Position numbers and translations under genes: made by a program. 64,000 bases of DNA, taken from positions 64,001 to 128,000 of the forward strand of contig JAEOTC010000038.1 in assembly GCA_016840035.1 (NCBI GenBank), written 5' to 3'. Position 1 is the stretch's first letter. Every line of letters begins with the position of its first letter. This DNA is from Candidatus Hodarchaeota archaeon. GTDB taxonomy: Archaea > Asgardarchaeota > Heimdallarchaeia > Hodarchaeales > Hodarchaeaceae. Of this stretch, positions 12,078 to 33,350 are shown piece after piece. Below the pieces are notes generated by a model that ran no database searches, was not told the DNA's origin, and worked only from the letters and a program-made list of their open reading frames with translations.

Positions 12078-12183
12078 TTCCTCTATGGGATTCTAGAGAA
12101 AAATAGCATTTCCTTCTTTATTAGTTAAACTCAATTCGAAATCCGCTTGAATCACACTAATTTGTAGGAAAGTTCATTCTTAA

Positions 12184-13595: not shown

Positions 13596-13596
13596 T

Positions 13597-14049
13597 ATGA
13601 AGGAACTTATACATCTACCTAAAGTCATTAAAAAATTGGAACAGAACCTAGAAGGTTATTTAGGTAAGCTATTCCCGACACGAGAACGAACTTTACCTGT
13701 AAAAAAAATGAAAAGGGAAAATAATACGATAATGACATGGAATGTGTATCCTAATCCTCCTGAAAAAATTAACAAAATTTTTGTAGACTTAGAAAAAATA
13801 ATTTCGAGAATTCTCAAACATCCTATTGATGGGGAACTAATCTGTTATGAGATTAAGGCTGGTCAAATTCTTGATGGAGGAGTTAATGCCTTTTCAATAC
13901 TTCAAGGATTCAACTGGGATTTATACCTGTACCAACCTGAAATTTTCATATACATTAGGTTACAACATGAATCAGACCTTGATGTAACCAATGAATGGAT
14001 TTCAATTGATATTGACCTAGTTAATAATTCGGCCTGGTTCCTTGACTAG
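13597..14049 (+). CDS. Hypothetical protein
   Basis: 150-aa ORF beginning 1 nt after the RING stop. Confidence 0.55.
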   Translation: MKELIHLPKVIKKLEQNLEGYLGKLFPTRERTLPVKKMKRENNTIMTWNVYPNPPEKINKIFVDLEKIISRILKHPIDGELICYEIKAGQILDGGVNAFSILQGFNWDLYLYQPEIFIYIRLQHESDLDVTNEWISIDIDLVNNSAWFLD

Positions 14050-14059
14050 AGTTTTCATT

Positions 14060-15004: not shown

Positions 15005-15177
15005 AAATATTCACCTATTTCAGTTTGATGTGACTTTTTCTGAATAAAACCCTCGTAATTTCTTTATTAATGCTTTTTGGTGGAGGAGGTCGCTTTTCTG
15101 TAAAAGATTTTCTCTGCAACAATAAAGGATAATTTTTAAAAAGAATCTCTAGAATCAAGATCGTATATGAGAGTCCT

Positions 15178-16209: not shown

Positions 16210-16216
16210 ATCCCGA

Positions 16217-16669
16217 CTATTTTTGGTTCCAATGCGCATAACGTCGAATATAATCGCCAACCTGATTTTGAAAGACCCTTCGATTTCGCTTCCATTGGCG
16301 CGCAGCAGTCGCATTTAGGGGGTCATCGGGATTGGGACTTGTTAGAAGGAATCGAATTGTCTCCACCACCTGCACTAAACTATAAGCTGGACTCCAATCC
16401 TTCCCAAGAATACCTACACACACTTTTTCTCTGAATATGTTCACATGCCAAATGGGAGTCTTAAACCTGACCTTTGGAGGTTCAAATGGATAACTACGAG
16501 GAATTTTTATTTCAATTACAAACACTCCCCCCTCATATAACCCAGATCCTAAAATTTCACCTTTCCAGAAAGTCAAATCGTTGTTAACTGATCTAAAAGT
16601 TGGTTGTTCCCGAGTCAACTCTTGAGCTTCGATTGCAAGTCGATCTAACCATTCTTCTTCAGTTAACAG
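16217..16669 (-). CDS. Ubiquitin-conjugating enzyme E2
   Basis: LYEGGVF, YPFEPPKVRF.TPIWHVNI, active-site VCVGIL, WSPA, PNPDDPLN. Frame is open upstream of the ORF call to a CTG at 16669 preceded by GGTGA. Confidence 0.93.
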   Translation of the reverse strand: MLTEEEWLDRLAIEAQELTREQPTFRSVNNDLTFWKGEILGSGLYEGGVFVIEIKIPRSYPFEPPKVRFKTPIWHVNIFREKVCVGILGKDWSPAYSLVQVVETIRFLLTSPNPDDPLNATAARQWKRNRRVFQNQVGDYIRRYAHWNQK

Positions 16670-16916
16670 ATCTTTTTCACCCTTATTTTTCTCTATATTA
16701 AAGGACTGGAACTTTGTTAATAAGTATAAGCAAATGAACCTTAATTATTACTTTCAATAGATTGGGTATAAAATTAGGTTTATAGGAAAGATGAATTCTA
16801 GAAAAGACATAATCTGACAATAACATTTTTATTTATTTCAGAAGGCATAAACTTACAATCAAACTTCCCTATACCACAATCTCCGAAAAAAAATACTTGA
16901 AAGGTGACTCTGTTAA

Positions 16917-17213
16917 ATGAGTGAAGCATACTTAGACATCCTCGAGAGGTTTACAAAGATCCAAGAAATTATGATTCTAGATGATAAGGAGTATCGGAAA
17001 AATCCGAAAAAAACCGCCAGAATCGCAAGCATGCTAGTAATGGCGAGTCTTTATTCGAGATTCTCCTTAGATCGTCAATATGCAGTATTCAAAGCCATGA
17101 AACAATCGATGCGTGAGAAGCTTGATAGTTTTAAGGCACTAGGGGATTCCGTTGATGATATTGCAGCAACCCTGATTTATGCATCTGAAGTTAATAAAAG
17201 CAAAACAGGCTAA
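16917..17213 (+). CDS. Hypothetical protein
   Basis: 98-aa ORF with AGGTGA SD upstream. Confidence 0.65.
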   Translation: MSEAYLDILERFTKIQEIMILDDKEYRKNPKKTARIASMLVMASLYSRFSLDRQYAVFKAMKQSMREKLDSFKALGDSVDDIAATLIYASEVNKSKTG

Positions 17214-17934
17214 TGATCAGAATTTCTAGTCAATACAGGTTATTAATCATTAAACCCGATTTCATCCACGATAATTCTTCTTTTCCTTTACTCTTATATT
17301 TGGATTAGATAGCCATTCAGTAGACTAATTCAACAATAGAAGGAATTGGTTGGTATGTCTACAATCTAAGCTGGTATTAGAACTTAAATAGTAATCTACC
17401 AGTTGAAATGCAATCTATACAAAGAAGAATTAAGAGGGGGGAGGGAGGGGATCCAGCGCTAATAAAAAACAGAGTTTTTTGGCACGCTGAATCCCAAGGT
17501 ATTCTCGTTTTTCTTCCAACCATACTAGAAGTGAATGATTGGACAAGAAAGCTTCCGTTGTAGAACTATATAATATTTTTTGTAAGGTACCCGAAAAAAG
17601 CCCTCTTTCTCTTTGCAGATAATATACTTACTTCGTACTTAGTTCTCTCGAATAGCATTTAGCTTAGATTTCTATCAACTAGTAACAAAATCCTTAGAGA
17701 GTATTTAAGCTCGAAAGAATTTTAAACACTCCCTTATTTGCTTTTTCTGAGGCGAAATAACATGTGGGATTGCCAAATGCTTGAATCACTTTGAACTCTT
17801 TTCTGGTCTCTTTCAAGCTAATGTTTTACTTCGCCTAAGCAGAATTGAAACACGGAATTTTGCGGATCCCTCAACTCCTCTCTTAATTATATTTGATAAT
17901 TATAATAGTAGAAGTAAAAATCAGTATTTAGGAT

Positions 17935-20025
17935 GTGTCTTACTTGGAAGATTTAACTGATAAGAAATTTGTTGTGTGTCCCGCGTGGCCTTACGTGAAT
18001 GCTGTTCCTCATCTCGGAACAGTGTTACATTTACTTAGTGCGGATATATATGTTCGTTACTTAAGGCTTCGTGGAGCAAATGTAATCTCAGCTACTGGTT
18101 CAGACTGTCATGGAACACCAATAGAGGTGGCTGCGCTAGCCACTGGAATATCACCTGAAAAATTGGTAGAACAACATCATGCTCAAATTTTAGACTTACT
18201 GCGGAAATGGAATATTGATCTAAATTATTCAAAAACAGAGAGCTCGCACCATTATTCTTGGGTACAGGATTTCTATCATCGATGTTTCGAAAATGGATTT
18301 ATTTTCAGTAAAGAAATTGAACAATTGTACTGTGAGACAGACAAGCGTTTCCTACCCGACAGATTCGTTGAAGGAACCTGTCCTCACTGTGAAACCCCAG
18401 GAGCTCGTGGAGATCAATGTGATTCCCCTTCTTGTGGAAAACCATTAAGTCCTGTTGAGTTAATAAATCCTGTGTGTAAAATTTGTGGAAAACCACCTAT
18501 TACTAAAGTTACAACTCAATGGTATTATGATTTCAGTGCTTTCCAAGAAGAATTGACCGATTTTATTAACAAGAATGAAAATTTCCCTGATAATGCACGT
18601 AAATTCTCAAATCATATCCTTCAGGAAGGATTACAAGCCCGAACTTTAACACGTGATCTCGCATGGGGAATACCTGCTGGGCCCGCAATACCTGGAGCAG
18701 AAGGAAAATCGATCTATGTATGGTTGGAAGCAGTTTTAGGATATGTTTCAGCATCAGCAGAATTAGGATTACGTTTATACAAAGACCCTGATTTTTGGAA
18801 ACAATTTTGGCTTGAACAAGATACTCGGACTATTTTCTTTATTGGAAAAGACAATATTTTCTTTCATACACTTTTATTTCCAGCTCTTTTATTGGGAACT
18901 AAAGATACTTATGGTAAGCCATTTGTTCTTCCATACAATGTTAGTACAACCGAATTTCTTATTTTTGAGGAGGACAAATTTAGTAAATCCAGAGGTATAG
19001 GTGTCTGGATTGATGAAGCTGCCAAGCTCCTTCCTACTGATTATTGGAGGTATTATTTAGCAGCGACACGTCCAGAAATTAAAGATACGTCATTTACTTG
19101 GACTGAATTTGAGCAACGTGTAAACAATGATCTTAATGACGTATTAGGGAACTATATTCATCGTGTCTTTGTACTAATTCACAAGTACTTTGAAGGAAAA
19201 ATCCCAGAATGCCACAGGTTAGATACTACCGATAGAGAATTTGTTTCAGCCATAAATAATGTTCCTGAGGCTGTAGCAGACCATTTTGACAATTTTGAAT
19301 TTAAAAAAGCAGTCGCTGCAATCATTGATTTCGCTCGTGTCGCCAATGGATATCTAAGTACAAAAGAACCCTGGAAATTAATAAAATCTGATCCTACAAC
19401 AGTTGAAACTACATTATACCTTTGTGCTCAATCAGTTGCGACTTTAAGTGTTATTTTATCACCTATTATTCCCGACACTGTGAAAAAAATTTGGGAAATC
19501 CTGAAACAGGATGGAAGTGTCCACGACCAGCAATTAGAGGATGCTGGAAAGCTAAGATTAGATCCAGGATCAGTCATTTTAGAATCAAAACCCCTTTTTG
19601 CTAAGGTTGAAAGCGAAGAATTACAGAAGGAACTCAACGCTATTCATAAAACGGAGTCTAAAAAACCAAAAAAGGTGAAAAAATTGCCAGATAGAGAAAC
19701 AATTCCATTCAAAGATTTTGAGAGACTTGATATCCGAATAGGTACAATCATTAAAGCAGAAAAAGTTCCTAAAGCCAAGAATCTATTGAAACTAAGAGTA
19801 GATCTAGGCGAAGACATCGGAGAAAGACAGCTAGTCGCTGGACTTGCATCTTTTCGTGACCCTAAAGACTTAATTAACCAAAGAATCACGGTTATAGTTA
19901 ATCTGGAACCTACAACAATCAGAGGGGTCAGATCTGAAGGAATGCTCCTCGCTGCAGTCGAAGGTAAGGAATTAGGATTAATAGTCCCTGATAAAAATAT
20001 CGCTAATGGCACTAGAGTTAGCTAA
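17935..20025 (+). CDS. metG: Methionyl-tRNA synthetase with C-terminal tRNA-binding (EMAP/Trbp111) domain
   Basis: PYVNAVPHLG (HIGH-like), Zn knuckles, YVWLEA, GKDNIFFH, KFSKS, C-terminal GVRSEGM. Confidence 0.97.
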   Translation: MSYLEDLTDKKFVVCPAWPYVNAVPHLGTVLHLLSADIYVRYLRLRGANVISATGSDCHGTPIEVAALATGISPEKLVEQHHAQILDLLRKWNIDLNYSKTESSHHYSWVQDFYHRCFENGFIFSKEIEQLYCETDKRFLPDRFVEGTCPHCETPGARGDQCDSPSCGKPLSPVELINPVCKICGKPPITKVTTQWYYDFSAFQEELTDFINKNENFPDNARKFSNHILQEGLQARTLTRDLAWGIPAGPAIPGAEGKSIYVWLEAVLGYVSASAELGLRLYKDPDFWKQFWLEQDTRTIFFIGKDNIFFHTLLFPALLLGTKDTYGKPFVLPYNVSTTEFLIFEEDKFSKSRGIGVWIDEAAKLLPTDYWRYYLAATRPEIKDTSFTWTEFEQRVNNDLNDVLGNYIHRVFVLIHKYFEGKIPECHRLDTTDREFVSAINNVPEAVADHFDNFEFKKAVAAIIDFARVANGYLSTKEPWKLIKSDPTTVETTLYLCAQSVATLSVILSPIIPDTVKKIWEILKQDGSVHDQQLEDAGKLRLDPGSVILESKPLFAKVESEELQKELNAIHKTESKKPKKVKKLPDRETIPFKDFERLDIRIGTIIKAEKVPKAKNLLKLRVDLGEDIGERQLVAGLASFRDPKDLINQRITVIVNLEPTTIRGVRSEGMLLAAVEGKELGLIVPDKNIANGTRVS

Positions 20026-20070
20026 AGTTTAATAAAACCCAGTTCCCATTCAGAGTTTAGGGATGAGTTT

Positions 20071-21204
20071 ATGCCTGAATGGGATTTAATTCTTTACACA
20101 GACGAAAAACAGAAAAATGTTCTGAATAAACTAAAACTTTCTGATAAAACTTTGTCCGCTGCGGGCCAACACGGAAAAGCCACTATTCTCGTGGATCATC
20201 AGGGGAAAGAATGGCTTTTGAAGATTTTCTCTAATATTCTAGATTTAGAGGTAAAAAAAGTATCCGACTTGGATATCGATATTCAAGATACTCCCGAACG
20301 GAGTCGTGACCGACTTCATTTATGGCGAGTATTAAATGAGATTACAGCATCACGACTTGGAAGACGTTTGTACCTAAATGTTCCCGAAACACGGATAATT
20401 TGTTCAGGTAAGGTTGCCAAATTTAAGTTAAAGTCCTCAACAGTCCTTAAAGAAGAAGATGTGGTAGTTTTAGATGAGGAAGAGGAAGAAGGGGAATCAG
20501 CAGAGGAATTTTATTCTTTTTCTGAGCGAGAAATTGGGTCTTTGAAAACTTCTGATCGGTTTGAAGAAATTCTAGCTCAAAAAAGTCCACGGAAAAATCC
20601 CACAGATATTTTAGCTCTTCTCCAAGAAAAAGTTCCAGATTCTCGGAATATTGATGAATACTTAGATGATCATAAGGCCGATTTAGATGCAGCCTTTGAA
20701 AATATTCAAAGCATAGATGATGCTTTTCTCCTTCTGCCTTTTGATATCTGGTTAAACGATCCTGATCGAAATGCTGGCAATTATTTAGTCCAGCTGAACG
20801 AGAAAAATGAAGCTTCACGAATTTGGGGGATAGATTATGAAATGTGGTCCTTTGGAAGCGATATTTGGATGGAAGAAGATAATGTAACCCAAGGAAGAAG
20901 TTATCTTACCGCAATAATCCATCCAAAAAGTCATATTTTCGATTCACGGGTCAATCAAACATTCTACAGAATAAGAATGCTTTCCGATGAGGAAATAGTT
21001 CAAATGACTAAAGCTCCTCAATTGGCTTGTAAGTTTTTCGAATTCCACATAAATACGGGCGATCTACACCCTGATGAGAGAGATAAATTAAAGCAAGTGG
21101 AGATTAACCTTGAAGATTTTCTGATTGAGTCCCGTCCACGTTCAGATAAATTAAGTGAAATCATCACACGTCAAATAGGTTTACCTAAAGACTTTAAGAC
21201 TTGA
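20071..21204 (+). CDS. HipA/PI3-PI4-kinase-like atypical kinase
   Basis: WLLK, LNEITASRLG, FDIWLNDPDRNAGNYLV catalytic loop, IDYE. Confidence 0.75.
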   Translation: MPEWDLILYTDEKQKNVLNKLKLSDKTLSAAGQHGKATILVDHQGKEWLLKIFSNILDLEVKKVSDLDIDIQDTPERSRDRLHLWRVLNEITASRLGRRLYLNVPETRIICSGKVAKFKLKSSTVLKEEDVVVLDEEEEEGESAEEFYSFSEREIGSLKTSDRFEEILAQKSPRKNPTDILALLQEKVPDSRNIDEYLDDHKADLDAAFENIQSIDDAFLLLPFDIWLNDPDRNAGNYLVQLNEKNEASRIWGIDYEMWSFGSDIWMEEDNVTQGRSYLTAIIHPKSHIFDSRVNQTFYRIRMLSDEEIVQMTKAPQLACKFFEFHINTGDLHPDERDKLKQVEINLEDFLIESRPRSDKLSEIITRQIGLPKDFKT

Positions 21205-21229
21205 AAATAAATTGGTAAATTTCGGGTCT

Positions 21230-22408
21230 TCATAAAACAGCACTCTCAAGCAAGTTCTTTGTCTTTAAGGCCATCATGTATTCTTCATCGGTAGGAATAA
21301 CCACAACTTCTATTTTGGATTCTGAAGATGAAATAATCACTTCTTCCTCTCCATTAGCTCCCTCGTTCTTTGAGATATCAATGGAAACATCTATACTATT
21401 CAGTCCCTTCACTATCAGTCTTCGAAAGTAAGAAGATCTCTCACCTATCCCACCTGTGAACACAATCGCGTCTAATCCTCCCAAAGCAATAAGGTACGCT
21501 CCAATATATTTCCGAATTCTGTAGGCAGCCATCTGAACAGCTAATTCTGCAGAGTGACTCCCCTTCAGAGCACTTTCCTGGATATCCCGCATATCTCTAA
21601 AATTCCCTGTAATTCCCAATAAGCCACTCCTTGAATTTAATTCTTGATCGATTTGATCAATGGTCAAATTTCCAGAACGCATCATAGCTAGTATTAAACC
21701 TGGGTCTATATCCCCCGATCGCGTGCCCATTATTAGGCCCTCTAAAGGAGTTAACCCCATACTTGTATCAATTGATTTTCCATCATATACAGCTGTTACT
21801 GAAGCTCCATTCCCAAGATGTAAGACGATTAGCTTTTTAGATTTCTTTAAACTAAGTAAACTTCTCGTTCTATTAGTCACATATTCAATAGATGTTCCAT
21901 GAAACCCATATCTCCGGAAAGAATTTTCCTCATACCACTTTCCTGAAATCGCATATCTGTATGCATATTCTGGAATCGTAGCATGAAAAGAAGTATCAAA
22001 AACTGCAATATGAGGAATAGCTGTTAATTTTTTTTTACTAGCTCGGATTCCAATTAGATTAGCGGGATTATGAAGTGGGGCAAGCTTTGATAGTTTTTCT
22101 ATCTGAGATTCAACCTCAGTATCAATGATCAATTCTCTTCGGAACTGTTCTCCCCCATGTACTACACGGTGAGCTACAGCTTTAATCGTATTAATGTCGA
22201 AGAATGTTAAGACATAATCTACAGCCTCTTCATGAGTAGCACAACTTATTACCTTGGTAACTTCCTCCTCCTTGCTTTTATGATATATCTTTGGTTCAGG
22301 GAGGCCTATTCGTTCCACTAATCCTTTAGCTATTAGCTGTTCTTTCTCCATGTTATAGATCGAATATTTTAGAGAGGAAGATCCTGAATTTATCGTTAAA
22401 ATTGTCAA
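21230..22408 (-). CDS. ackA: Acetate kinase
   Basis: INSGSSSLK, HRVVHGG, APLHNP, DTSFH, YGFHGTS, HLGNGAS, GTRSGDID, FTGGIGE. Confidence 0.97.
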   Translation of the reverse strand: MTILTINSGSSSLKYSIYNMEKEQLIAKGLVERIGLPEPKIYHKSKEEEVTKVISCATHEEAVDYVLTFFDINTIKAVAHRVVHGGEQFRRELIIDTEVESQIEKLSKLAPLHNPANLIGIRASKKKLTAIPHIAVFDTSFHATIPEYAYRYAISGKWYEENSFRRYGFHGTSIEYVTNRTRSLLSLKKSKKLIVLHLGNGASVTAVYDGKSIDTSMGLTPLEGLIMGTRSGDIDPGLILAMMRSGNLTIDQIDQELNSRSGLLGITGNFRDMRDIQESALKGSHSAELAVQMAAYRIRKYIGAYLIALGGLDAIVFTGGIGERSSYFRRLIVKGLNSIDVSIDISKNEGANGEEEVIISSSESKIEVVVIPTDEEYMMALKTKNLLESAVL

Positions 22409-22418
22409 AAAGACCCCT

Positions 22419-23867
22419 CTAGTAGGTACCTTTAGGTGTATCAGTCCCTTTTACAATAGCAATGGATGCTGATGCACCAATCCTAGTTGCTCCAGCGTTT
22501 ATCATCTGCTCTGCAATCTCGTGAGTTCTTATCCCTCCAGCTGCTTTTACACCCATTTCTGGACCTACTGTTTTTCTCATCAGAGCAATATCCTCAACTA
22601 ATGCTCCTGCAGTACTGAAACCTGTAGAAGTTTTAACAAAATCTGCTCCACTTAATTTTGTTAACAGACTACCTTTAACTATTTGTTCCTTGGTTAGTAG
22701 AGCAGTTTCAAGAATGACCTTTACTATGGCTTTCCCTGCAGCGGCATTTACTACCGCTTGGATATCCTCCCTAACTAAGTCATCGTTACCTGATTTCAAC
22801 GCTCCCACGTTAATAACCATGTCTACTTCATCTGCTCCATTTGCTACAGCATCTCGAGTTTCAATTGCCTTTACGGTGGGGGTAGTTGCTCCTAATGGAA
22901 ATCCAATTACAGTACATACTTTCACTGAGCTACTTTTCAAATATTTGGCTGCTTTTGCTACATTTGTAGGATTAATACATACTGATGCGAATTTATACGT
23001 TGCAGCTTCTTCACATAGTTGTTTAATCTCTTCTTCAGTTGCATCTGCACGGAGATTAGTATGGTCGATATACTGAGCAAGCTCCATATCATACCCATTT
23101 ATCCCTGTCTCAGAGGTAATTCTTGTTGCTCCTCCATTAACTAATGCTTTAACAGCAGCTTGAGACTTTCCATCTAATCCAATCTCTTTCCCTGAAGTCC
23201 CAATTGTGTATGATCGATCAGAGGTGGTTGGGATATAGGGAGAGGGTTCTTGATCAGTTATCTGATGAACATCAACAATTTTGATTCCCATAGTCCTTAA
23301 TTGATCAATAATTCCCTCAATACGTCTATTCATTGCAGGTGGGACTTGATCTTTCTCAATCTGACAACAGTAGATGGAATCATATGCTGCAATAACTGGT
23401 TTTCCATACATCAATCCAAATACTAGGGTTATAGTTCCCAAGGAATCTGCGTTCAAGGCCGCTACTTTAGCTGCAGTATTTAAGGATAATATAGGCACAT
23501 AAATAACATCTACCCGACTTAAAATATTGTCAAAAAACTGTTCAGAATAATCAGTAATAATTGTGGCTCCTTCAGAGACTTGTCTAATATCAGGTAAACC
23601 AATTATTTTTATTGCTGCACGAGTCATTACGATGTAAGTATTAGTATACGATTTTGAGATTTTTTCTATTTGGTGCATAACTTCATTAATCTCTTTATTC
23701 CCCCCACATAGTAGAATTAAAGCTGAGTTTCCTGAAGCTATTGTATAATTGATTTTCCGATTAGAAGTCTGTAAATTCGAATCGAACTGTTGTTTGGGAG
23801 CGAGATTATCTTGATCAAGCTTCCTCATCACTTCTTCAGTGATTTTCTGTATCATCTCATTACTCAT
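22419..23867 (-). CDS. deoC: Encapsulation peptide + flavoprotein-like domain fused to deoxyribose-phosphate aldolase
   Basis: C-terminal [49 protein letters not shown]; N-terminal [17 protein letters not shown] and [10 protein letters not shown]...DSL flavoprotein-like segment. Confidence 0.93.
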
Positions 23868-23887
23868 TTTCTTTACCCAAAATTATT

Positions 23888-24178
23888 TTAACTTAATTCA
23901 GTTTGTTTTCCATCCACTTCAATATAATCAATAACACCTACTATTAATGCATCCACAGCGGCTTTGTCATTATGCATTATACCTCGTATAGAGTTACCTT
24001 CTCGGATAACAAGGACACAATCCCCGATTCCAGATTTGGCTACATCTAGAGCGATGATAGAAGGCTCAGTGAAATTTCCTTTCAGATCTATCGGACGTAC
24101 CACAAGTATTTTTCCGTTTTCATGACTCTCAGTTTTAATTGGAGCAACTACATTGCCGATTACTTTAGCAAGAATCAT
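23888..24178 (-). CDS. BMC shell pentamer (BMC-P, EutN/CcmL family)
   Basis: MILAKVIGNVVA, IIALD...GIGDCVLV, VDALIVGVID. Confidence 0.95.
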   Translation of the reverse strand: MILAKVIGNVVAPIKTESHENGKILVVRPIDLKGNFTEPSIIALDVAKSGIGDCVLVIREGNSIRGIMHNDKAAVDALIVGVIDYIEVDGKQTELS

Positions 24179-24717
24179 TCTGTTTCACTTTCTACAATTT
24201 TTGGTTTAATTTCACGAATCTTTTTTGGTTTCTTCTTTCGAGTGGCCCTTTTTCTTGGTTTTGGTTTAACTACGGGCTTAATTTCTTCAACTACTTCGGG
24301 TTCCTCTACTTTCGTTTTCGGGATCGGTTCAAGTATCTCCTCTTTGGGAATTTCCCCGATTTCTTCATCTAGACTTATATCAACTTGTTTTAATGTTGCT
24401 GGAGGGGCCTTCTTCTTCTTTCTCTTCTGAGGTTTGCGTTTTGCACTTTTTGTAACATAATATTCCTCAATATATCCAACTATACACTCATCAATCGGAA
24501 CGAGTTCCTTTGGAAAGACAATAGCTGCCTCCTTTTTACTTACTACATACACAATATCTCCAGGTCCTGCAGTTTCAATGCCATCAGCGGCAACATATGG
24601 ACTTCCCAAGGGTTGAAGATTATCATCTAGACCTTGAACTACTAGAAGTCGGAGAGAATTTAATCCTGGATCTTTTGTTGAGGCAACAACATTCCCTATT
24701 ACTTTTCCAAGTTTCAT
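24175..24717 (-). CDS. BMC shell pentamer (BMC-P) with a long Lys/Arg/Glu-rich C-terminal tail
   Basis: MKLGKVIGNVVASTK, VAADG..AGPGDIV, PIDECIVGYIE, then about 90 aa of low complexity. Confidence 0.92.
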   Translation of the reverse strand: MKLGKVIGNVVASTKDPGLNSLRLLVVQGLDDNLQPLGSPYVAADGIETAGPGDIVYVVSKKEAAIVFPKELVPIDECIVGYIEEYYVTKSAKRKPQKRKKKKAPPATLKQVDISLDEEIGEIPKEEILEPIPKTKVEEPEVVEEIKPVVKPKPRKRATRKKKPKKIREIKPKIVESETE

Positions 24718-24721
24718 GTAA

Positions 24722-25180
24722 TCACGCTGATTTTAAATATTTCAATTCAATCTCGGAAATCTTATTTACTCTGGTCTCGTGTCTTCCACCACCGAAAGGA
24801 GTAGATAACCAAATCTTAACAATATTTTGCGCAATTCCTGGACCAATTACTCTCGCACCTAAAGTCAGGATGTTAGAATTATTGTGTTCACGAGCGGAAT
24901 TCGCAGTAAATTCATCCGTGCAAGGAGTTGCTCGAATTCCTTTAATTTTATTTGCTACAATTGCGCTAGCTACGCCTGTACCATCGATGAGAATCCCAAC
25001 GGATTCAACTGAGACTGCAACTGTTTGTGCTACTAATAATGCAATATCAGGATAATCCACAGGATCTGTAGAATAACAACCATAGTCCGCAACTTCGTAT
25101 CCTATTCCTTTCAGGAATTTTATCAGATCATTTTTGAGATGGAAACCACCATGATCCGATCCAATTATTATTTTCTTCAT
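24722..25180 (-). CDS. rpiB: Ribose-5-phosphate isomerase B family
   Basis: GSDHGG, DYPD, DGTGVAS, ANKIKGIRA, AREHNNSNIL, FGGGRH. Confidence 0.95.
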   Translation of the reverse strand: MKKIIIGSDHGGFHLKNDLIKFLKGIGYEVADYGCYSTDPVDYPDIALLVAQTVAVSVESVGILIDGTGVASAIVANKIKGIRATPCTDEFTANSAREHNNSNILTLGARVIGPGIAQNIVKIWLSTPFGGGRHETRVNKISEIELKYLKSA

Positions 25181-25205
25181 TTGACTTCAACTTGTAATAT
25201 AAAAC

Positions 25206-25757
25206 TCAAAGCAGAGTTTTTACTAGATCTGGATGAGGAGCAGGAATTACAGCAGTGGATAATACTAATCCTTCTCCTTTTACACGATTAACCCCAGCAT
25301 CTACAGCTGCTCGCACGGCACCCACTTCTCCTGTTAAAACAACAAACGCCTTTCCACCTATTGCGCGACTCATCCGAATTTCGATTAACTGTACCTGCGC
25401 ACTTTTAACAGCTTCGTCACCAACCATGATCGCTGTAGGAGCAGAATAAGTTTCTACTACTCCTATCGCGCCTACTTTTTCAACTCCAGATGTACCCGCA
25501 ATTGCTGGAAAAACCTCAGGATGTATATTGGGAATTACTGTGTAATTTACTAAGGTTTCACCTGCTATTTCACTTCCAGCGATTAGAGAGCTTTGAACAG
25601 CTGCAACTGCTCCTTGAATAATGATTAAATATTTTCCAGGACATACTGGTGAGGCGAATAATAGCTCGACTTCTGCTGTTTTCGCTATTGTATCGGCACT
25701 CAGTATACCTCGAGCAATTACATTTGTTTCTAGAACTCCTATAGCACGCATTTTCAT
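25206..25757 (-). CDS. BMC shell trimer (BMC-T, PduT-like)
   Basis: Two tandem BMC domains; PVCPGKY Cys motif as in PduT; C-terminal VIPAPHPDL. Confidence 0.93.
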   Translation of the reverse strand: MKMRAIGVLETNVIARGILSADTIAKTAEVELLFASPVCPGKYLIIIQGAVAAVQSSLIAGSEIAGETLVNYTVIPNIHPEVFPAIAGTSGVEKVGAIGVVETYSAPTAIMVGDEAVKSAQVQLIEIRMSRAIGGKAFVVLTGEVGAVRAAVDAGVNRVKGEGLVLSTAVIPAPHPDLVKTLL

Positions 25758-25827
25758 TTTCCTCTAAGATTGTAAACAAAGATGAAAGTAGTGAGCATTA
25801 GCTGCTCTCTTGCAGCTAATTGTTTAT

Positions 25828-26118
25828 TCAACCTTTCTTTGGGAGAATACTCTCAACTTCATCATGGGGTCGAGGAATTACATGAGCTGAGGTTAGTTCA
25901 CCAACTTTTCGTGCAGCGACTGCACCAGCTTCAACAGAAGCTTTCACAGCACCAACGTCACCTCTAACCATTACAGTAACAAAACCACCGCCAATAACTT
26001 CGCGTCCCATTAAATGAACGTTCGCTGCTTTCACCATAGCGTCAGCTGCTTCAATAGATGCAACTAACCCTTTTGTTTCTATCAATCCAAGTGCTTCTTT
26101 AGCCATTTTTTTCACCAA
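25828..26118 (-). CDS. BMC shell hexamer (BMC-H, PduA/EutM-like)
   Basis: [50 protein letters not shown]. Confidence 0.98.
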
Positions 26119-26130
26119 TTTTTTTGTCTT

Positions 26131-27456
26131 TTATTTTGTCTTTTCAATGACAATTTCTTGTCCAATTTTGCGAATAATTCCGCTAATACTAGCATGAATT
26201 ACTGCACCTAGTGACCCATCTGGAATCTTTCCTATGAGTGCACCTTTTTCAACCGAATCTCCTACTTTTACCGTTGGAATTGCAGGATCTCCGATATGTT
26301 GTTTGAGAGGGATGGAAACTTTTCGAATCTGTAATTTTCGTTTTCGTATTGGACATTCATGATTATAATTCAATAGATCCAATCGTGAAATTAATCTTTT
26401 TACAGGTAATTTTCGATATTCCCTCTCAGGATGAATCGATAATACTTTTCGATTATGAGTATTCTTTAAACCCTCTACCCTCAACTGTCCCTTTACTTCT
26501 GTCATCATTTTACATGGATCCAACCCCATAGGACATCCATAATATGTACAAGCTCCACATTCCACACAAAGGAATGTTCCCGTCATATAATCGGGTCTTT
26601 CTGGAGCACCCCATGCTATTCCTCGCATAACTTTGTCAGGATGTAATTCATGGCCCAATAAGAATCTAGGACAGACATCTGTACATAATTGACATCTTAT
26701 GCATGCTGCTTTGGTAACAATTACTTTGGATGAGATCCGTTCAGTTTTCATTCTGATTACAAAATGATTCTCTGGCAAAACAATTATTCCAGAAGTTAAT
26801 TTGGTAATAGGTTTTTTAGGGGCAATTACTGTACCCATCATGGGTCCATTTATCAATACTTGATAATCATCGATTGTAGCTCCCCCTGCAGCTTTTATTG
26901 CATCCTTTATTGAGGTACCAATTGGAAATTCCATCGTAGAGGGGTTTTTAACAGCGCCTGTTATGGTTACATAACGAGATACTATGGGATTTCCTTCAGC
27001 GGCCTCAGCTAGATTGATCAATGTATAGACATTATTTACTACGACTCCAATGTCAAGAGGGAGTCCACTTTCCGGAATTATTTTACCTAAAGCTTCATAA
27101 ACAAGAACATGTTCATCTCCAGCAGGATAAACATCATCGAGAAGGAATATCTCGATTCTGGAATCAGCTTTGACCACTTGTTTAAGCTTCTTAATTGCAG
27201 TTTTATACTTCCTTTTTACAGCGATTATTCCTCGCTTCGCCCCAGTGGCTTTCATTCCTAGCTGTAATCCAGTTATTAATTTTCCTGGACAGGTTGTCAT
27301 TAATTGCTGATCCACTCTTAATAATGGTTCACATTCAGCTGCATTAACTATAAACGTATCTACTTTCGCAGAAAGCTTCACATGTGTAGGAAAACCAGCT
27401 CCACCAGCTCCAACTATTCCAGAATTTCGTGCCATGTCTGCTATTTCGGAGCTCAC
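26131..27456 (-). CDS. pduS: PduS/RnfC-like flavin, SLBB, 4Fe-4S oxidoreductase
   Basis: GIVGAGGAGFPTHVK, NAAECEPLL, YPAGDE, GPMMG, CIRCQLCTDVCP, CVECGAC, LKQHIG, HASISG; adjacent to PduT-like gene. Confidence 0.9.
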   Translation of the reverse strand: MSSEIADMARNSGIVGAGGAGFPTHVKLSAKVDTFIVNAAECEPLLRVDQQLMTTCPGKLITGLQLGMKATGAKRGIIAVKRKYKTAIKKLKQVVKADSRIEIFLLDDVYPAGDEHVLVYEALGKIIPESGLPLDIGVVVNNVYTLINLAEAAEGNPIVSRYVTITGAVKNPSTMEFPIGTSIKDAIKAAGGATIDDYQVLINGPMMGTVIAPKKPITKLTSGIIVLPENHFVIRMKTERISSKVIVTKAACIRCQLCTDVCPRFLLGHELHPDKVMRGIAWGAPERPDYMTGTFLCVECGACTYYGCPMGLDPCKMMTEVKGQLRVEGLKNTHNRKVLSIHPEREYRKLPVKRLISRLDLLNYNHECPIRKRKLQIRKVSIPLKQHIGDPAIPTVKVGDSVEKGALIGKIPDGSLGAVIHASISGIIRKIGQEIVIEKTK

Positions 27457-27483
27457 TTATATTTGCCTCGTTTTCTTTTGATT

Positions 27484-28911
27484 TCAAATGATTCTAAAAG
27501 CATCCACTAGAGTACAACGTCTTTGACGTGTAAAAGTTCTTGCTGAGGTAAGTCCTTCTCCCGTTGGTCCTGCAATTGTCATAGTAGTATAGCCTTCCCC
27601 TCCGAATCCAATCCCAGCAAAGGAGGGGGCATTTTTGACAAAAATTGTAGTTTCGATATCTTTTGCCACAAGACTCATATTTCCAACTGAATCGCTCCAC
27701 ATCATTGCTGTGTGTTTGAATCCATGTTCAGCCTTCTTTGCTTTTTGCAAAGCTTCTTCTATTGATTTCACTCTAACTATTGGTAAGACTGGCATCAACA
27801 TTTCAGATATTACGAAGGGATGTTCATCATCAGGCACCTCTGCAATTATCAACCGGATATTGTCACTAACCTGCACTCCGATTCCCTCAAGAAGTATTTT
27901 GGCATCTTTTCCGATGAAGTCCCTGTTTACTATGGGAAATCTCCCTTTCTTTCCTTTGAAAACGAGATTAGTCAGTTGGACTATCTGATCTCCAACAATT
28001 TCATATGCACCATAATTCTTCATTTCTGCTTTTAATCGATCAGTGATGACATCAAATGCGAATACTTCTTTTTCTACAATACATACAATATTATTATCAA
28101 AACTTGCGCCTTCTACTATTCCTCGGGCTGCTTTTTGAATATTTGCAGTATCATCAACTATTACAGGAGGATTTCCTGGTCCTGCACATATCGCTTTTTT
28201 TCCAGATTGCATTGCAGCTTTTACTACTGCACTTCCTCCTGTTACAACTAGACACCGAATCTTTTTGTGTGTCATTAAAGTCTGGGCTGACTCAATCGTA
28301 GGGGATATGGTTGATGTAAGAACATTTTCTGGTCCCCCCGCTTCGAGAATTGCCCTATTCAATAATCTCACAGCTTCATTACTTGCTCTTTTAGCTGATG
28401 GATGAGGATTAAATACTACGCTATTTCCTGCCGTAACCATTGATATTCCATTGTTAATTATCGTTGCTGTTGGGTTTGTTGAAGGAGTAATTGACCCAAT
28501 TACGCCATAAGGAGCCATTTCAACAAGTGTTAATCCTTTATCACCCGTCCATGTATTTGGTACCAGATCTTCTAAGCCTGGAGTTTTTCGAGCACAGAGC
28601 AAATTCTTTGCTACTTTATCCTCTAATCTCCCTAGACCAGTTTCTTGGATTGCTAATTCAGCTAGATATCGTGCATGTTTAATAGCGGAGTCACGCATCG
28701 ATTGTATGATTTCTTTTCTTCTCTCCAAAGATAAATCCATTAGTGCTACTTGACTCTTTTCCGCAGCCTCTATTGCCTGTTCAATGTCCTGGAATATTCC
28801 TCCACCTGCACTAGTGGGAATATTCTCCAATCCTGAATAGACTTGATAAGCTCTTATTTTCTGTACAACAGAATTGACGATTTTTGCAATTTGTTGTTCG
28901 TCATATGACAT
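27484..28911 (-). CDS. CoA-acylating aldehyde dehydrogenase (EutE/PduP family) with N-terminal encapsulation peptide
   Basis: PYGVIGSITPSTNP, VTGGSAVV, AGPGNPPVIVD, FDNNIVCIVEK, EMLMP, GEGLTSARTFTRQRRC. Confidence 0.95.
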   Translation of the reverse strand: MSYDEQQIAKIVNSVVQKIRAYQVYSGLENIPTSAGGGIFQDIEQAIEAAEKSQVALMDLSLERRKEIIQSMRDSAIKHARYLAELAIQETGLGRLEDKVAKNLLCARKTPGLEDLVPNTWTGDKGLTLVEMAPYGVIGSITPSTNPTATIINNGISMVTAGNSVVFNPHPSAKRASNEAVRLLNRAILEAGGPENVLTSTISPTIESAQTLMTHKKIRCLVVTGGSAVVKAAMQSGKKAICAGPGNPPVIVDDTANIQKAARGIVEGASFDNNIVCIVEKEVFAFDVITDRLKAEMKNYGAYEIVGDQIVQLTNLVFKGKKGRFPIVNRDFIGKDAKILLEGIGVQVSDNIRLIIAEVPDDEHPFVISEMLMPVLPIVRVKSIEEALQKAKKAEHGFKHTAMMWSDSVGNMSLVAKDIETTIFVKNAPSFAGIGFGGEGYTTMTIAGPTGEGLTSARTFTRQRRCTLVDAFRII

Positions 28912-28958
28912 TTATCTACCTTCGTTTCGTTTTTTATTTTCTTACATAAAGGGAAATC

Positions 28959-29249
28959 TTATTTTCGATAAGTTTCTTTTCCATTTATTTGGATAAAATC
29001 TATGATAGCTTGGATCGTTGCATCTGTGGGTTTATCCTTGGTCATTGCAGTTAAACGAGATGAACTTCCAGTAACAACTAGTACTAATTCGTTCTCTCCC
29101 GCACCAACTGCATCAATTGCCACGAAAGGAGAACTCTCTGGTTTTAAATCAGTCATATCCACTGGTTGTACTATCATTAATTTAAAGCCTTTAATACTGG
29201 CATCCTTCTCGGTACTTACTACATTTCCTATTACTTTACACACTTTCAT
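28959..29249 (-). CDS. BMC shell pentamer (BMC-P, EutN/CcmL family)
   Basis: KVIGNVVSTEK, VAIDAVGAGENELVLVVTGSSSR, PTDATIQAIID. Confidence 0.96.
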   Translation of the reverse strand: MKVCKVIGNVVSTEKDASIKGFKLMIVQPVDMTDLKPESSPFVAIDAVGAGENELVLVVTGSSSRLTAMTKDKPTDATIQAIIDFIQINGKETYRK

Positions 29250-29260
29250 GTAAATATCTC

Positions 29261-29980
29261 CTAAATCTTAATTATCTTTATATCAAGCATTTTAGCTTTT
29301 TCTTGTGCTAAGGGGGTAATAATAGTTGAATGGGGTACAAATATTTCGTGAATTTTACCTTTTAATCCCTCTAAATAATCCTCGGTAATTAAATCTGGTA
29401 TAGCTGGAGTATGTTTGACAAATTGATCTTCTAAGTCCTCTATGTCAACAAGTCTGAATCCCATTTCGATTAAAGTAGATAAATATCGACTCAGATTATT
29501 AGTTAACATACCCGATGGGCCATAGTCAAATGTTAAATCTGTGGGAGGAAAAGGTGTTACAATATAAACAGGAATTTTAAATAACAACCCTTGAAGTAAT
29601 AAATTAACAGTTGAATTGGAATCTTCAAATTTTGTTATTTTTTTTGCTATTTCAAAACTAAAGGCACCAAACATAATTGATTTAAGATTACTGTAAAAAT
29701 TTAGGCAAAAATCTCCAAAAGGATTAACTAAAACGTCCATTGTGGGAATTGAACCTGCTTTTGTGGTTATTTTCTTAGCCTGGTCAATTTCATCCTTTGT
29801 CCAGATCAGGACTTGCATTTTTTGTTCGGCTAATCTAATTAGGGATTGTAATAATTCATCCAATCCTTGTCCCATATGGGTTAAGACACCTAGGACATCG
29901 TAAGGACCTAGGTTATGCTCATTCTTGAGAACACTCTTAACTTGCTGTGTAACGAGTAATTCGAGCTCTTTCTCATTCAT
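29261..29980 (-). CDS. BMC accessory flavoprotein-like protein with N-terminal encapsulation peptide
   Basis: MNEKELELLVTQQVKSVL; C-terminal LITEDYL...IITPLAQEKAKMLDIKI module seen in BMC accessory proteins. Confidence 0.7.
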   Translation of the reverse strand: MNEKELELLVTQQVKSVLKNEHNLGPYDVLGVLTHMGQGLDELLQSLIRLAEQKMQVLIWTKDEIDQAKKITTKAGSIPTMDVLVNPFGDFCLNFYSNLKSIMFGAFSFEIAKKITKFEDSNSTVNLLLQGLLFKIPVYIVTPFPPTDLTFDYGPSGMLTNNLSRYLSTLIEMGFRLVDIEDLEDQFVKHTPAIPDLITEDYLEGLKGKIHEIFVPHSTIITPLAQEKAKMLDIKIIKI

Positions 29981-29995: not shown

Positions 29996-30316
29996 TTAAT
30001 CTCTTCCAGGATCCTCTTCTACGCTTGAAGTTCGACTTCTGACTTTCTCAATAAGATCAACCGTCACCTGATCAGGTCTTGGAATTACATTAGTTAATAA
30101 ACCACAGGAGATCTGACGTAGTTGGACTTTTGCTGCTTCAATTGCTTCACGGACAGCAGCGACCTCTCCCTCAATTATCACAATAACCAATCCCCCTGAA
30201 ACACGTTTTAAGGAAATAAGGCTCACATCTGCGGTTTTCATGGCCGTATCTGTTGCCACAATGGCTCCTATCCGACCGCATGTCTCCATAAATCCTAAAG
30301 CTTTCATTAAAATCAC
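29996..30316 (-). CDS. Second, divergent BMC shell hexamer (BMC-H)
   Basis: KALGFMETCG, ATDTAMKTADV, IEGEVAAVREAIEAA, NVIPRP; overlaps the upstream stop by 4 nt (alternative ATG at 30307). Confidence 0.93.
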   Translation of the reverse strand: MILMKALGFMETCGRIGAIVATDTAMKTADVSLISLKRVSGGLVIVIIEGEVAAVREAIEAAKVQLRQISCGLLTNVIPRPDQVTVDLIEKVRSRTSSVEEDPGRD

Positions 30317-32169
30317 CTGAACGGAGAATAAGATCCTTCTTTTAAATCCAAAATCAGACTCCCCATTTCTCCCGTATTCAGTGCAAGAGCATTACCCTCG
30401 TCAAGGTCTAAATGGAGCTCCAAATTATAATCCGGGTGAATTCTAACCATGATCTCGTCTAGGATTCCAGCTCGGGTTCCAGGAAATTGAACAGCAACTA
30501 TCTGTCGATCTGACACATTTAACCTTTGCGCATCTTTTGGTGACATGTGGATGTGTCGCGCTGCGAAAATGACTCCCTTATCCAAAGTGATAGCTCCCTT
30601 TGGACCAATTATGTGTACTCCTGGAGTATCTCTTAAATCTCCTGATTGACGTGTTGGTGGATTAATACCTAATACATAACCGTCACTCCGAGATATTTCA
30701 ACTTGAGTTTCGTCTCTGAAGGGGCCAAGAATACGAACTCCATAGATGGCTCTTTTGGGGCCGATTAGATCAACAACTTCTTTGCATGCATACTGTTTTG
30801 GTTGAGTTAAGGAATTAAGGGGAGTTAAAACTGCTTTTTCTCCAAATAATTTGTGAAAATCGGCTTTTGAAAGGTGGATGTGACGTGCAGATAAGGATAC
30901 TGGAATTAAATGATCATCGAATACTTTAGTCAGCTCATCGGTGACTAATCTCTTCACTAGTTCTCCAGCTGCTGACTGTGTACTTCGTTGTGAAATGGGT
31001 TGATATTCACAACCTAATGGACCGCAATATCTTCCTACATATTCAGCAGAGGGTCTATAAATCACTGGTTTGACGGTAGGAGTTTCGGGATACTTCTCTT
31101 CTAAAACATGAGCAGTCCAACCAGCGACTCTCGATGTAGTAAAAATCGGTGTAAAGAGTTCAACTGGGATATTTAAGCTTGTATATACCGTGGCACCATA
31201 TAGATCCACATTAGGATATATTCCACGATTTTTTCGCTTCTTAAATTCTTTTTGAGTAATCTCAACCAACTTATTGGTAGTTTCATACATCCATTGAGCT
31301 AATCCACCCTTCCTTCTCACAAGATCTGCAGCCATTTCCTTCAATATTTTGGCTCTCGGATCTGTAGTTTTATATACGGCATGTCCCATCCCCATAATTC
31401 GTTTACCTTCATTAAATCGATTTTTGACCCATTCCTCAGCACTTGAGACTTTCTTAATCTCCATTAAGCTTTCATAAACTAAATGATTAGCTCCCCCATG
31501 ATACATCCCTGATAAAGAACCAATGGCACCAGAAATAGATGCATATAGATCCGCTCCAGTAGATGCAATGACCCGAGCTGTGAATGTGGAAGCATTGAAA
31601 GAGTGTTCTGCATGTAGAATTAGTGTGACATCAAAGATCCTTGCTTCTTCATCAGTTGGGATACTCCCATGAAGCATGTAGAGGAAATTTGATGCATATT
31701 TTAGATTCTTATTTGGAGCGATTGGTTCTTTATTGCTACGAATTCTCTCCCATGCGGTCACAATAATAGGAAGCCGAGCTATTATTCTAATTGCAATATT
31801 TCGATCGGATTCTCTTTTTCCAGTCCCGATCTCGTTGTTGTATCCTGCTAGTAAAGCTAATGAAGATTGGAGTACACTCATAGAAGGGGTATTCTTTGAG
31901 GTTTTCTGTAAATGTGAGATTAATTGTGGTGGTAAATCCTGATTTGAAATTATTGCGTTCTTAAAACTCTCCAATTGATCAAAAGAGGGGAGGTTTCCGT
32001 ACAGAAGTAAGTAAACTACCTCTTCGTAGGTTGAATTTCTTGCTAACTCATTAATGTCATAACCTCGGATAAATAGATTGCCTTTTTCACCTTCTATAAG
32101 ACAAATATTTGTATCCGCAACCTCAACACCGCGAAGTCCTGTTGATTTGTGGCTATGTTCTTCAATCAT
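30313..32169 (-). CDS. Citrate synthase fused to PduL phosphotransacylase
   Basis: aa ~10-380: GLRGV, LHAEHSFNASTF, HGGAN, GMGHAVYKTTDPR, PNVD, SRVAGW. aa ~422-605: SARHIHLS, LTQPKQYA, RILGPFRDETQVEIS, RQSGDL..TPG, ARHIHMSP, ELHLDLDEGNA. Confidence 0.93.
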   Translation of the reverse strand: MIEEHSHKSTGLRGVEVADTNICLIEGEKGNLFIRGYDINELARNSTYEEVVYLLLYGNLPSFDQLESFKNAIISNQDLPPQLISHLQKTSKNTPSMSVLQSSLALLAGYNNEIGTGKRESDRNIAIRIIARLPIIVTAWERIRSNKEPIAPNKNLKYASNFLYMLHGSIPTDEEARIFDVTLILHAEHSFNASTFTARVIASTGADLYASISGAIGSLSGMYHGGANHLVYESLMEIKKVSSAEEWVKNRFNEGKRIMGMGHAVYKTTDPRAKILKEMAADLVRRKGGLAQWMYETTNKLVEITQKEFKKRKNRGIYPNVDLYGATVYTSLNIPVELFTPIFTTSRVAGWTAHVLEEKYPETPTVKPVIYRPSAEYVGRYCGPLGCEYQPISQRSTQSAAGELVKRLVTDELTKVFDDHLIPVSLSARHIHLSKADFHKLFGEKAVLTPLNSLTQPKQYACKEVVDLIGPKRAIYGVRILGPFRDETQVEISRSDGYVLGINPPTRQSGDLRDTPGVHIIGPKGAITLDKGVIFAARHIHMSPKDAQRLNVSDRQIVAVQFPGTRAGILDEIMVRIHPDYNLELHLDLDEGNALALNTGEMGSLILDLKEGSYSPFR

Positions 32170-32402
32170 TGGTAGGCCTTTTTATTTCAAGTAAGATTTC
32201 GGTATCAAAAGGTGAAACTTCCTTCCCTTAAAAATCGCTCTTTCAAACGTCTGACGATTCAAAATGGTAATTTCTTCCCAAACTTACTGAATGTTAATCT
32301 GGTTAATATGAGAGAGTTATTTTGTATTATAGATAACCAATAACACTATATAATAGATAGTAGCTTTTATTAGAAGACTATTCTCTTTGGAGGTTATTAT
32401 CT

Positions 32403-33350
32403 GTGATGATTAGAGGCTTTTCAAAATATACTTCTTTTACTTGTTCGGATTGTCACATGAAATGCTGTGCGACCGAGTTCAATCTTCCAATAAGTGGGTT
32501 AGAAAAAGAATATCTTACCCAAAATTTTCCAGAATATCGACATTACTTACAATCTACAGAAAAAGGATCTTTTATACTCCGAGGAAACTCATGTCCTTTC
32601 TTGACAACCGCTGGATTGTGCCAACTGCATGCTAAATCAATAAAACCTCTTACATGTAGAATTTACCCCTTAATTTTCTGGCGATTCAACCAAAAAGATA
32701 CTTTAGTTTCTATACATCCCTGTCGGGGACATGGATTTCAATGGTATTCTAGAAAGAAATCATCTGTTGGTAATAGCTTTATCAATCAGCTATTATCTGC
32801 TAGTAAGGAGTATTATGACACTTATTGGGGGGAAGAAATCGATGCAAACAATCCTTATGAGGGAATTTCTCAAGCAAGAATTAAAGACCAACTCGAAGCT
32901 TATCGTCATACTTCAAAGGATAAATTGCTAGTAACCAACTTGAAAAACCCTGATTTATCCTCACGAATTCCATTTTCTCAGGCGTTTCAGGAGAAGGCTT
33001 TAGAGATCATCGATGGAGGGAGCATTGGAAATTTTTTAAATTCTGTTTTCAACTGGTTAATTTGGAGTCCAGTAGGCTTGCACTTATCAATAAAAAATGC
33101 TCAAACGCTTTTTACTACCGCTGCATTATGGTTAATTGACCAAACTGAGGTAAATTCGAACATACTTTCCTCTATTCCTCCTGAATCACAGTATTATGAG
33201 CAAACATCCTCGTTCTATGCGAGTTCCTTAACTCCTTCTTTCTGGGAAAATATCCTCGCTCAGAAAACCCTCCCCACTCTAAGTACCTTTGCAGAGAAAG
33301 TCCGCTTAATTCTCATGGGAGAACTTCCACAAGATGATTTACTTAAATGA
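32403..33350 (+). CDS. YkgJ-family Cys-cluster (CxxCxxCC) protein
   Basis: FTCSDCHMKCC, CPFL...CQLH...KPLTCRIYP. Confidence 0.8.
   Translation: MMIRGFSKYTSFTCSDCHMKCCATEFNLPISGLEKEYLTQNFPEYRHYLQSTEKGSFILRGNSCPFLTTAGLCQLHAKSIKPLTCRIYPLIFWRFNQKDTLVSIHPCRGHGFQWYSRKKSSVGNSFINQLLSASKEYYDTYWGEEIDANNPYEGISQARIKDQLEAYRHTSKDKLLVTNLKNPDLSSRIPFSQAFQEKALEIIDGGSIGNFLNSVFNWLIWSPVGLHLSIKNAQTLFTTAALWLIDQTEVNSNILSSIPPESQYYEQTSSFYASSLTPSFWENILAQKTLPTLSTFAEKVRLILMGELPQDDLLK

Follow-up and report, generated by a model that had tools for sequence, protein, structure and literature searches.

Why should citrate synthase (CS), an unusual cargo for a microcompartment, be joined in a single polypeptide to the phosphotransacylase (PTAC) PduL at the head of an archaeal microcompartment operon? 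The gene that raises this question lies in a stretch of 64,000 nucleotides from Candidatus Hodarchaeota archaeon, of the order Hodarchaeales (assembly GCA_016840035.1, contig JAEOTC010000038.1, positions 64,001 to 128,000 of the forward strand), the whole of which is called the window here. On the basis of its two enzyme domains, the helix that links them, the operon that it heads and the relatives of each half, we consider it probable that the fusion is a bifunctional CS and PTAC cargo enzyme of the Hodarchaeales sugar-phosphate metabolosome, with one encapsulation peptide (EP) and two routes for regenerating coenzyme A (CoA).

A preliminary description of the window took this architecture to be undescribed; it has in fact been reported by Du et al. 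(bioRxiv, November 2025; PMC12747264), who found archaeal microcompartments (AMCs) in 66 of 111 Hodarchaeales genomes, inferred their acquisition from Myxococcota and showed shell assembly. In the same study, CS and PTAC are presented as alternative ways of releasing CoA that are fused into one open reading frame (ORF) in some lineages, and the inter-domain linker of this CS+PTAC is predicted to be an EP (PMC12747264). The fusion, the linker peptide and the idea of dual CoA recycling are already known, and the window gene is a further orthologue. Compared with CS+PTAC of the preprint (PMC12747264; representative GCA_003144275), it has the same succession of PF00285, linker EP and PF06130, the same proposed role and the same type I operon (two H, one T, three P, DERA, RPI, AldDH, MNdh and AK), with no essential difference beyond its coming from another species-level genome. 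A full-text literature search found no other paper linking CS with microcompartments, and the main text of the preprint mentions neither the origin of the CS half, nor operon variants with CS only or PduL only, nor ATP-citrate lyase (ACL) (PMC12747264).

The fused gene and its linker helix

The gene is one 618-residue ORF on the minus strand, free of interruption in both the ORF list and the translation, and the junction from CS to PduL is an unbroken reading frame. Translation and Pfam agree with the preliminary description, which had recognized a full CS, a helix and a full PduL in one ORF and to which the strand is added here; every motif that it quoted is in the translation, and its helix maps exactly to 30919–30963. 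The parts of the gene are as follows.

30313..32169, minus strand: fused CS-EP-PduL gene (P0001), 618 residues (ORF list, translation, Pfam and full-length orthologues)
31051..32139, minus strand: CS domain, residues 11–373 (Pfam PF00285, Citrate_synt)
30985..31050, minus strand: C-terminal CS tail, residues 374–395, with a conserved YCGPxGC...P..R motif that marks the CS subfamily
30919..30963, minus strand: amphipathic helix ELVKRLVTDELTKVF, residues 403–417, putative EP, now internal (alignment, hydrophobic moment and AlphaFold2)
30379..30903, minus strand: PduL (phosphotransacylase) domain, residues 423–597 (Pfam PF06130, PTAC/PduL)
30316..30378, minus strand: C-terminal tail ending in YSPFR, conserved in Asgard PduLs (alignment A2)

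The CS domain matches positions 1–356 of the 357 in its profile (E = 1e-122; 410 bits against a curated cut-off of 27) and contains HGGAN (224–228), GMGHAVYKTTDPR (260–272) and PNVD (319–322). H224 of HGGAN, H263 of GMGHAVY and D322 of PNVD are invariant in alignments A1 and A3, as are R272, R347 and R372; by textbook knowledge of CS, these are the catalytic His, His and Asp and the arginines of the oxaloacetate/citrate site. The closest solved relatives are the short dimeric CS enzymes of Thermus (1iom) and Pyrococcus (P. furiosus, 1aj8), which are matched over their full length (E = 1e-84 to 1e-80) and share the catalytic His-His-Asp motifs, whereas the window enzyme belongs to a YCGPxGC subclade, sits within a microcompartment operon and is fused to PduL. 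Within the tail, Y381, C382, G386, C387, P391 and R395 are invariant in both the AMC-linked and the free members of the CS clade described below.

The PduL domain matches positions 1–175 of 176 (E = 2e-70; 236.6 bits against a cut-off of 25), carries RHIH motifs at 429–432 and 538–541, and aligns with the PduL of R. palustris (5cuo) over 184 residues (E = 1e-50) with both RHIH motifs matched; H430, H432, E491, H539, H541 and H586 are invariant. As in bacterial PduLs that bear an EP, such as that of R. palustris (5cuo/5cup), an amphipathic helix precedes the domain, but the window protein has 395 residues of CS before this helix, making the EP internal, and it has the YSPFR tail. The (F/Y)SPFR ending is kept in Asgard PduLs, fused or free, and is missing from the aligned bacterial PduLs (alignment A2). 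In place of the SPFR tail, the Myxococcota-clade PduLs with full-length alignments (P0137, P0139 and P0141) end in about 35 additional, Cys-rich residues. The catalytic residues of both halves are invariant across 28 fused orthologues at identities down to 60%, and an AlphaFold2 model of the whole fusion, built on a 28-row alignment, has a pLDDT of about 90 across the CS half.

The linker helix (residues 403–417) has a hydrophobic moment of 0.43–0.50, and DSSP assigns helix to residues 401–414 of the AlphaFold2 model at low pLDDT. It has the features of an EP, a short amphipathic helix of about 15–20 residues that a linker of low conservation separates from the enzyme. Stand-alone Asgard PduLs (221–226 residues) align with the fusion from about residue 396 onwards, and the N-terminal 20 or so residues of these and of EP-bearing Bacillota PduLs have in common the pattern L-V/T-x-R-L/F-I/V-x-Q-E-L. 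Because the helix is aligned with the N-terminal extension of stand-alone PduLs, it appears to be PduL's own N-terminal encapsulation peptide, and the linker of some orthologues retains a Met codon at the former PduL start position. Production of a separate PduL from an internal start (GGAG...GTG at V405) was considered and rejected, as the orthologous codon is GTT, GTA, ATA, GTC or ACA and is not conserved. For the preprint's representative genome, EP-dependent recruitment of CS+PTAC to shells has been reported on co-expression in E. coli (PMC12747264).

Full-length orthologues with 60–83% identity come from metagenome-assembled genomes labelled Hodarchaeales, Hodarchaeota or Heimdallarchaeota. 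One of these orthologues, on contig NJBF01000010 of B3_Heim (G002), which we take to be the preprint's representative assembly, is about 81% identical overall (85% in the CS half and 75% in the PduL half). Across 24 species-representative genomes of the order, the uninterrupted fusion is present in eight, and about 30 protein clusters contain it as well. The window genome is a fragmented assembly of 293 contigs, in which a sequencing error at the junction might have merged two adjacent genes into one. That explanation is hardly credible, as the same continuous frame recurs in eight independent species representatives and about 30 clusters of several sources and the junction is conserved, with just 7–8 variable residues between the conserved CS end (...P-x-x-x-R395) and the helix; being stop-free in all of these, the fusion is neither a chance ORF nor an artefact of assembly.

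One further genome of the 24 (G008) has CS and PduL as adjacent separate genes. These are truly two genes: between a TGA and the ATG of PduL lie about 85 nucleotides of AT-rich sequence full of stop codons. BMC-domain genes occur in nine of the 24 genomes, and exactly the same nine carry this type of CS (eight fused and one split). The combination of PF00285 with PF06130 was also sought, as the preliminary description had proposed, by an exhaustive HMMER search of 1.84 billion cluster representatives (50% identity). Among the top 150 matches listed (at least 223 bits), the sole representative spanning both halves was P0026 (617 residues), a single cluster at 50% identity, and within these matches no lineage but this archaeal one has CS followed by PduL. 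The relatives discussed below come from alignment-based scans of genome contigs, with at most 600 candidate stretches taken from each, and those named are a sample; a single-protein pattern search of genome contigs with the CS half gave mainly chance matches, such as in cyanobacteria, and was superseded by these scans.

The operon and its surroundings

As the preliminary description had it, the fusion heads the microcompartment operon: it is the 5′-most gene of a co-oriented, tightly packed series on the minus strand that runs from 32169 to 21230. The features around it are given here.

29996..30316, minus strand: BMC-H shell hexamer gene (Pfam PF00936)
21230..29980, minus strand: remaining operon, from a 239-residue protein to acetate kinase (Pfam scans; same order in G008 and related loci)
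32170..32402, no strand: AT-rich divergent intergenic region of 233 bp, presumed promoter, judged from the sequence
32403..33350, plus strand: divergent gene for a 315-residue CxxCxxCC-domain protein (Pfam PF03692), conserved 5′ neighbour of the operon

BMC-H probably starts at an ATG about 5 nucleotides past the TGA of the fusion, with AGGTGA at the end of the fusion gene. After the fusion come BMC-H, the 239-residue protein without family, BMC-P, an acylating aldehyde dehydrogenase (AldDH), an RnfC/PduS-like NADH dehydrogenase, BMC-H, BMC-T, RpiB, BMC-P with a basic tail, BMC-P, a flavoprotein-DeoC aldolase and acetate kinase (AckA). The acylating AldDH (27484–28911) thus shares an operon with the shell genes, the context expected for PduL, and the whole fits an SPU-type metabolosome, or Hodarchaeales AMC type I (DeoC, RpiB, AldDH, a CoA recycler and BMC-H/T/P). 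Pfam scans found neither TIM nor a class II aldolase in the window operon. One BMC-P gene (24175–24717, minus strand) encodes 180 residues owing to a tail without a Pfam domain, the other two encoding 96 residues each; a DNA/RNA-binding, K/R-rich disordered region has been reported on AMC-P2 (PMC12747264).

The divergent CxxCxxCC gene shares 37% identity (E = 2e-81) with the gene upstream of an operon in which PduL stands without CS (L317). At the acetate kinase end, the operon is flanked by MetRS and an ORF of about 380–400 residues both in the window (17935–21204, plus strand) and in G008 (L320:2928–6275), and at the CS/PduL end by a divergent gene of about 315–340 residues in both, G008 being a single-contig genome. 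By the positions and sizes of these flanking genes, the location of the operon is conserved between the window and G008.

Descent of the two halves and origin of the fusion

Separate trees for the two halves, as advocated in the preliminary description, had the outcome of an archaeal CS with a bacterial PduL. In the PduL trees (115 rows, and a careful tree of 36 rows), the Asgard PduLs form one clade (support 100/99) whose neighbours are all bacterial, from Myxococcota, Bacillota and Desulfuromonadales, the exact sister group being ambiguous from this one gene; the lineage at the base of the Asgard clade has PduL only. On these trees, the PduL half is of bacterial descent. In SPU-type loci of Myxococcota (JAHJMN010000208, L210; HGW-Deltaproteobacteria-22, L207), PduL is 51–53% identical to that of the window and the downstream order is shared (PduL, an unknown protein of about 249 residues, BMC-P, AldDH, NADH dehydrogenase, BMC-T, TIM and flavoprotein-DeoC). 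These loci differ in starting with PduL, with a pyridine-nucleotide disulphide oxidoreductase upstream, and in having TIM, as in type II. No CS is present in these nearest Myxococcota loci, and the three genomes concerned gave no match to the CS half and have no full-length CS, just an ACL-like partial CS domain elsewhere. Two Myxococcota genomes (G024 and G025; L279 and L280) have a second PduL-like domain, 47% identical to that of the window, in ORFs of about 795 residues outside the microcompartment locus.

The CS half has other relatives. In a 136-row tree, the compartment-linked CS enzymes (fused, split and long forms) make up one group (96% SH-aLRT), and in a quick PMSF tree of 49 rows they are several lineages, depending on rooting, at the base of a clade that encloses them and is supported at 99% in both trees. 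The clade also holds, from Asgard archaea, the free CS of G014, that of G137 (another Asgard class, 57% identity) and those of Odin-sized Asgard genomes, and, from others, those of Methanoperedens, Nitrososphaerota and a few Thermodesulfobacteriota and Nitrospirota; all its members have the C-terminal YCGPxGC motif. The CS half is accordingly archaeal in type, nested within a mainly archaeal clade. A second Hodarchaeales CS paralogue, at about 40% identity, falls far from these, among bacterial-like branches of the tree. The closest free CS is that of G014 (Hodarchaeales, 94% complete, without BMC genes; L319:9243–10445, minus strand), which adjoins sucC, sucD and fumC. A proline that is invariant elsewhere is replaced in it by a single in-frame TAG, which could be a pseudogene mutation, a sequencing error or recoding. 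In the window genome, the operon and the sucC orthologue lie on separate contigs. Taken together, the trees indicate that the fusion is an inter-domain chimera of an archaeal-type CS and a PduL of bacterial descent.

Among the contigs with relatives, four states of the operon head are seen. Five operons have PduL alone (L317, L318, L326, L327 and L328), and in the first of these the same divergent CxxCxxCC neighbour as in the window lies directly upstream of PduL. Two have a long CS and a separate PduL (L284 and L329); three have a long CS with no PduL in the operon (L285, L286 and the P0040 contig), these being type II operons with TIM and a class II aldolase, and with three BMC-H in L285 and the P0040 contig; and the fourth state is the fusion. 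One of the CS-only operons (L285, operon 6731–21381) has two ACL genes directly upstream on the same strand. The long stand-alone CS enzymes, of about 500–530 residues (L284:10001–11491, P0039; L285:10001–11593, P0037; L329:5001–6524, P0036), have an amphipathic helix at the N terminus, a further helix, similar to the PduL EP, behind the CS domain, and at the C terminus a conserved domain of about 45 residues with the core ...ITPLARDRARE-GI-I..., which has a sub-threshold match to Pfam E3_binding (E = 0.002–0.02); this core motif was not found in the window. The L284 contig (GCA_048885365.1, JBHLPY010000010) has a complete type I operon with Asgard-type flanks, including an Arf/Ras-family GTPase gene, under the NCBI label Candidatus Odinarchaeota; either the genome has been misnamed or the contig misbinned, or the compartment extends beyond Hodarchaeales.

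This patchwork of operon heads bears on how the fusion came about. The preliminary description suggested that the shell operon, once transferred, might have joined a resident CS gene in frame at its 3′ end, which would have produced the fusion in one step and lent the operon the CS promoter. The archaeal type of the CS half and the bacterial type of the PduL half would suit such a capture, as would the place of the fused gene at the operon head and the citrate-metabolism context that the ACL genes upstream of one CS-only operon provide. We nevertheless regard it as unlikely: PduL-only operons are known, one with the same divergent CxxCxxCC neighbour and the basal Asgard PduL lineage among them; adjacent unfused CS and PduL genes with real spacers occur; stand-alone AMC-linked CS enzymes bear targeting helices of their own; and the nearest free CS sits in a fumC-sucCD cluster, the orthologue of which is on another contig in the window genome. 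The variety of heads thus speaks against a one-step landing at a host CS gene. It argues instead that CS may have joined a PduL-headed operon first and been fused later, and that CS or PduL alone may be able to serve as the operon's CoA-recycling step. Most likely, the fusion arose from adjacent CS and PduL genes through the loss of a stop codon and a short spacer.

Proposed role in the compartment

In the shell, the aldolase and the acylating AldDH would convert deoxyribose-5-phosphate to acetyl-CoA, and the trapped CoA pool would have to be regenerated inside. The PduL half would turn acetyl-CoA into acetyl-phosphate and CoA, supplying acetate kinase, the last gene of the operon, and through it yielding ATP, and the CS half would turn acetyl-CoA and oxaloacetate into citrate and CoA. 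The EP, internal since the fusion, would target both enzymes by one signal. The PduL of bacterial descent would have arrived with the shell operon and then joined a CS of the mainly archaeal clade. We infer that both activities are functional, that they are so in the compartment, and that its shell lets oxaloacetate and citrate through. The CS reaction is exergonic and, when oxaloacetate is available, would probably pull the AldDH step. The fusion would also fix the stoichiometry of CS to PduL and spare the CS the separate targeting helices of the long forms. That one chain carries two activities that consume acetyl-CoA and release CoA, as the preliminary description had proposed, seems the most reasonable reading of the sequence and is also the published one (PMC12747264).

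Two other accounts of the CS half can be weighed against this. PF00285 includes 2-methylcitrate synthases, which are among the solved relatives (E = 1e-67 to 1e-61), and acyl-CoA specificity is not fixed by sequence alone, so the enzyme might be, for example, a 2-methylcitrate synthase or make a different product, and the branch point would then not be that from acetyl-CoA to citrate. We judge this improbable: the closest solved structures are of genuine citrate synthases, the nearest free relative adjoins sucCD and fumC in a tricarboxylic acid (TCA) cycle context, and the chemistry of the operon's aldolase and AldDH gives acetaldehyde and acetyl-CoA, not propionyl-CoA (PMC12747264).

The second account would have the dimeric CS and the dimeric PduL cross-link a cargo network that nucleates the enzyme core, with citrate formation irrelevant or lost. 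Solved relatives of the short CS type and of PduL are oligomers, and fusing two oligomeric enzymes is a known way of building assemblies. A pure scaffold would not be expected to keep all catalytic and substrate-binding motifs of CS invariant down to 60% identity, however, and the CS-only operons without PduL suggest that CS itself does the CoA-recycling chemistry. We therefore think a purely structural role equally improbable. In those PduL-less type II operons, CS would be the sole CoA-recycling enzyme that the operon encodes.

Three observations weigh against a bifunctional cargo enzyme and its proposed history. In the AlphaFold2 model, the PduL half has a pLDDT below 50 with a shallow alignment, and the EP helix is predicted at low confidence only. 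The separate CS of G008 is without a recognizable targeting helix; not every lineage, therefore, need encapsulate its CS. Finally, the association with CS changes at least five times on the PduL tree, which has polytomies, and the number and direction of fusions and fissions are ambiguous.

The fate of citrate was considered from the gene content of the genome and of the order. No full-length CS besides the fused gene was found in the window genome (87% complete, 293 contigs), a search for a second having been proposed in the preliminary description; the other PF00285 matches are a short form of 259 residues and the ACL alpha subunit. The genome also encodes ACL beta and an aconitase of 904 residues and, because genes for aconitase and ACL are both present, a TCA-type and an ACL route would both seem open to citrate from the fusion. 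The CS paralogue of about 40% identity is kept in four of the nine compartment-bearing relatives. ACL is present in 19 of the 24 genomes of the order, with or without BMC genes, so co-occurrence gives no support to a link between ACL and the compartment. With this query, a full-length CS of either type was not found in nine of the 24 (G001, G003, G007, G011, G012, G015, G017, G019 and G021; completeness 74–96%); eight of these nine have ACL (Citrate_bind domain), and G011 gave no match.

More tentatively, CS might be no side branch but an interchangeable, self-sufficient module for both CoA recycling and carbon export, with citrate leaving the shell and cytosolic ACL re-liberating acetyl-CoA and oxaloacetate; we hold this to be a possibility with the balance well against it. 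The functional analogy is with the mitochondrial citrate shuttle: a compartment impermeable to CoA could export its acetyl units as citrate, and ACL genes are present in the window genome and directly upstream of the CS-only operon of L285, although the boundary here is a protein shell and not a membrane.

Microcompartments were long held to be purely bacterial, and their discovery in Hodarchaeales, which are among the archaea close to eukaryotes, is recent and notable. To this, the present analysis adds an inter-domain chimera and a set of related operons among which CS and PduL modules have been swapped, lost, split and fused. That a compartment-targeted enzyme is the only full-length CS found in the genome raises the question of how a TCA-type pathway would be supplied. 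If the export of citrate proves true, a single targeting helix would fix the ratio of ATP yield, through acetyl-phosphate, to acetyl-CoA export, and archaea closely related to eukaryotes would have, in a protein shell, a counterpart of the mitochondrial citrate shuttle.

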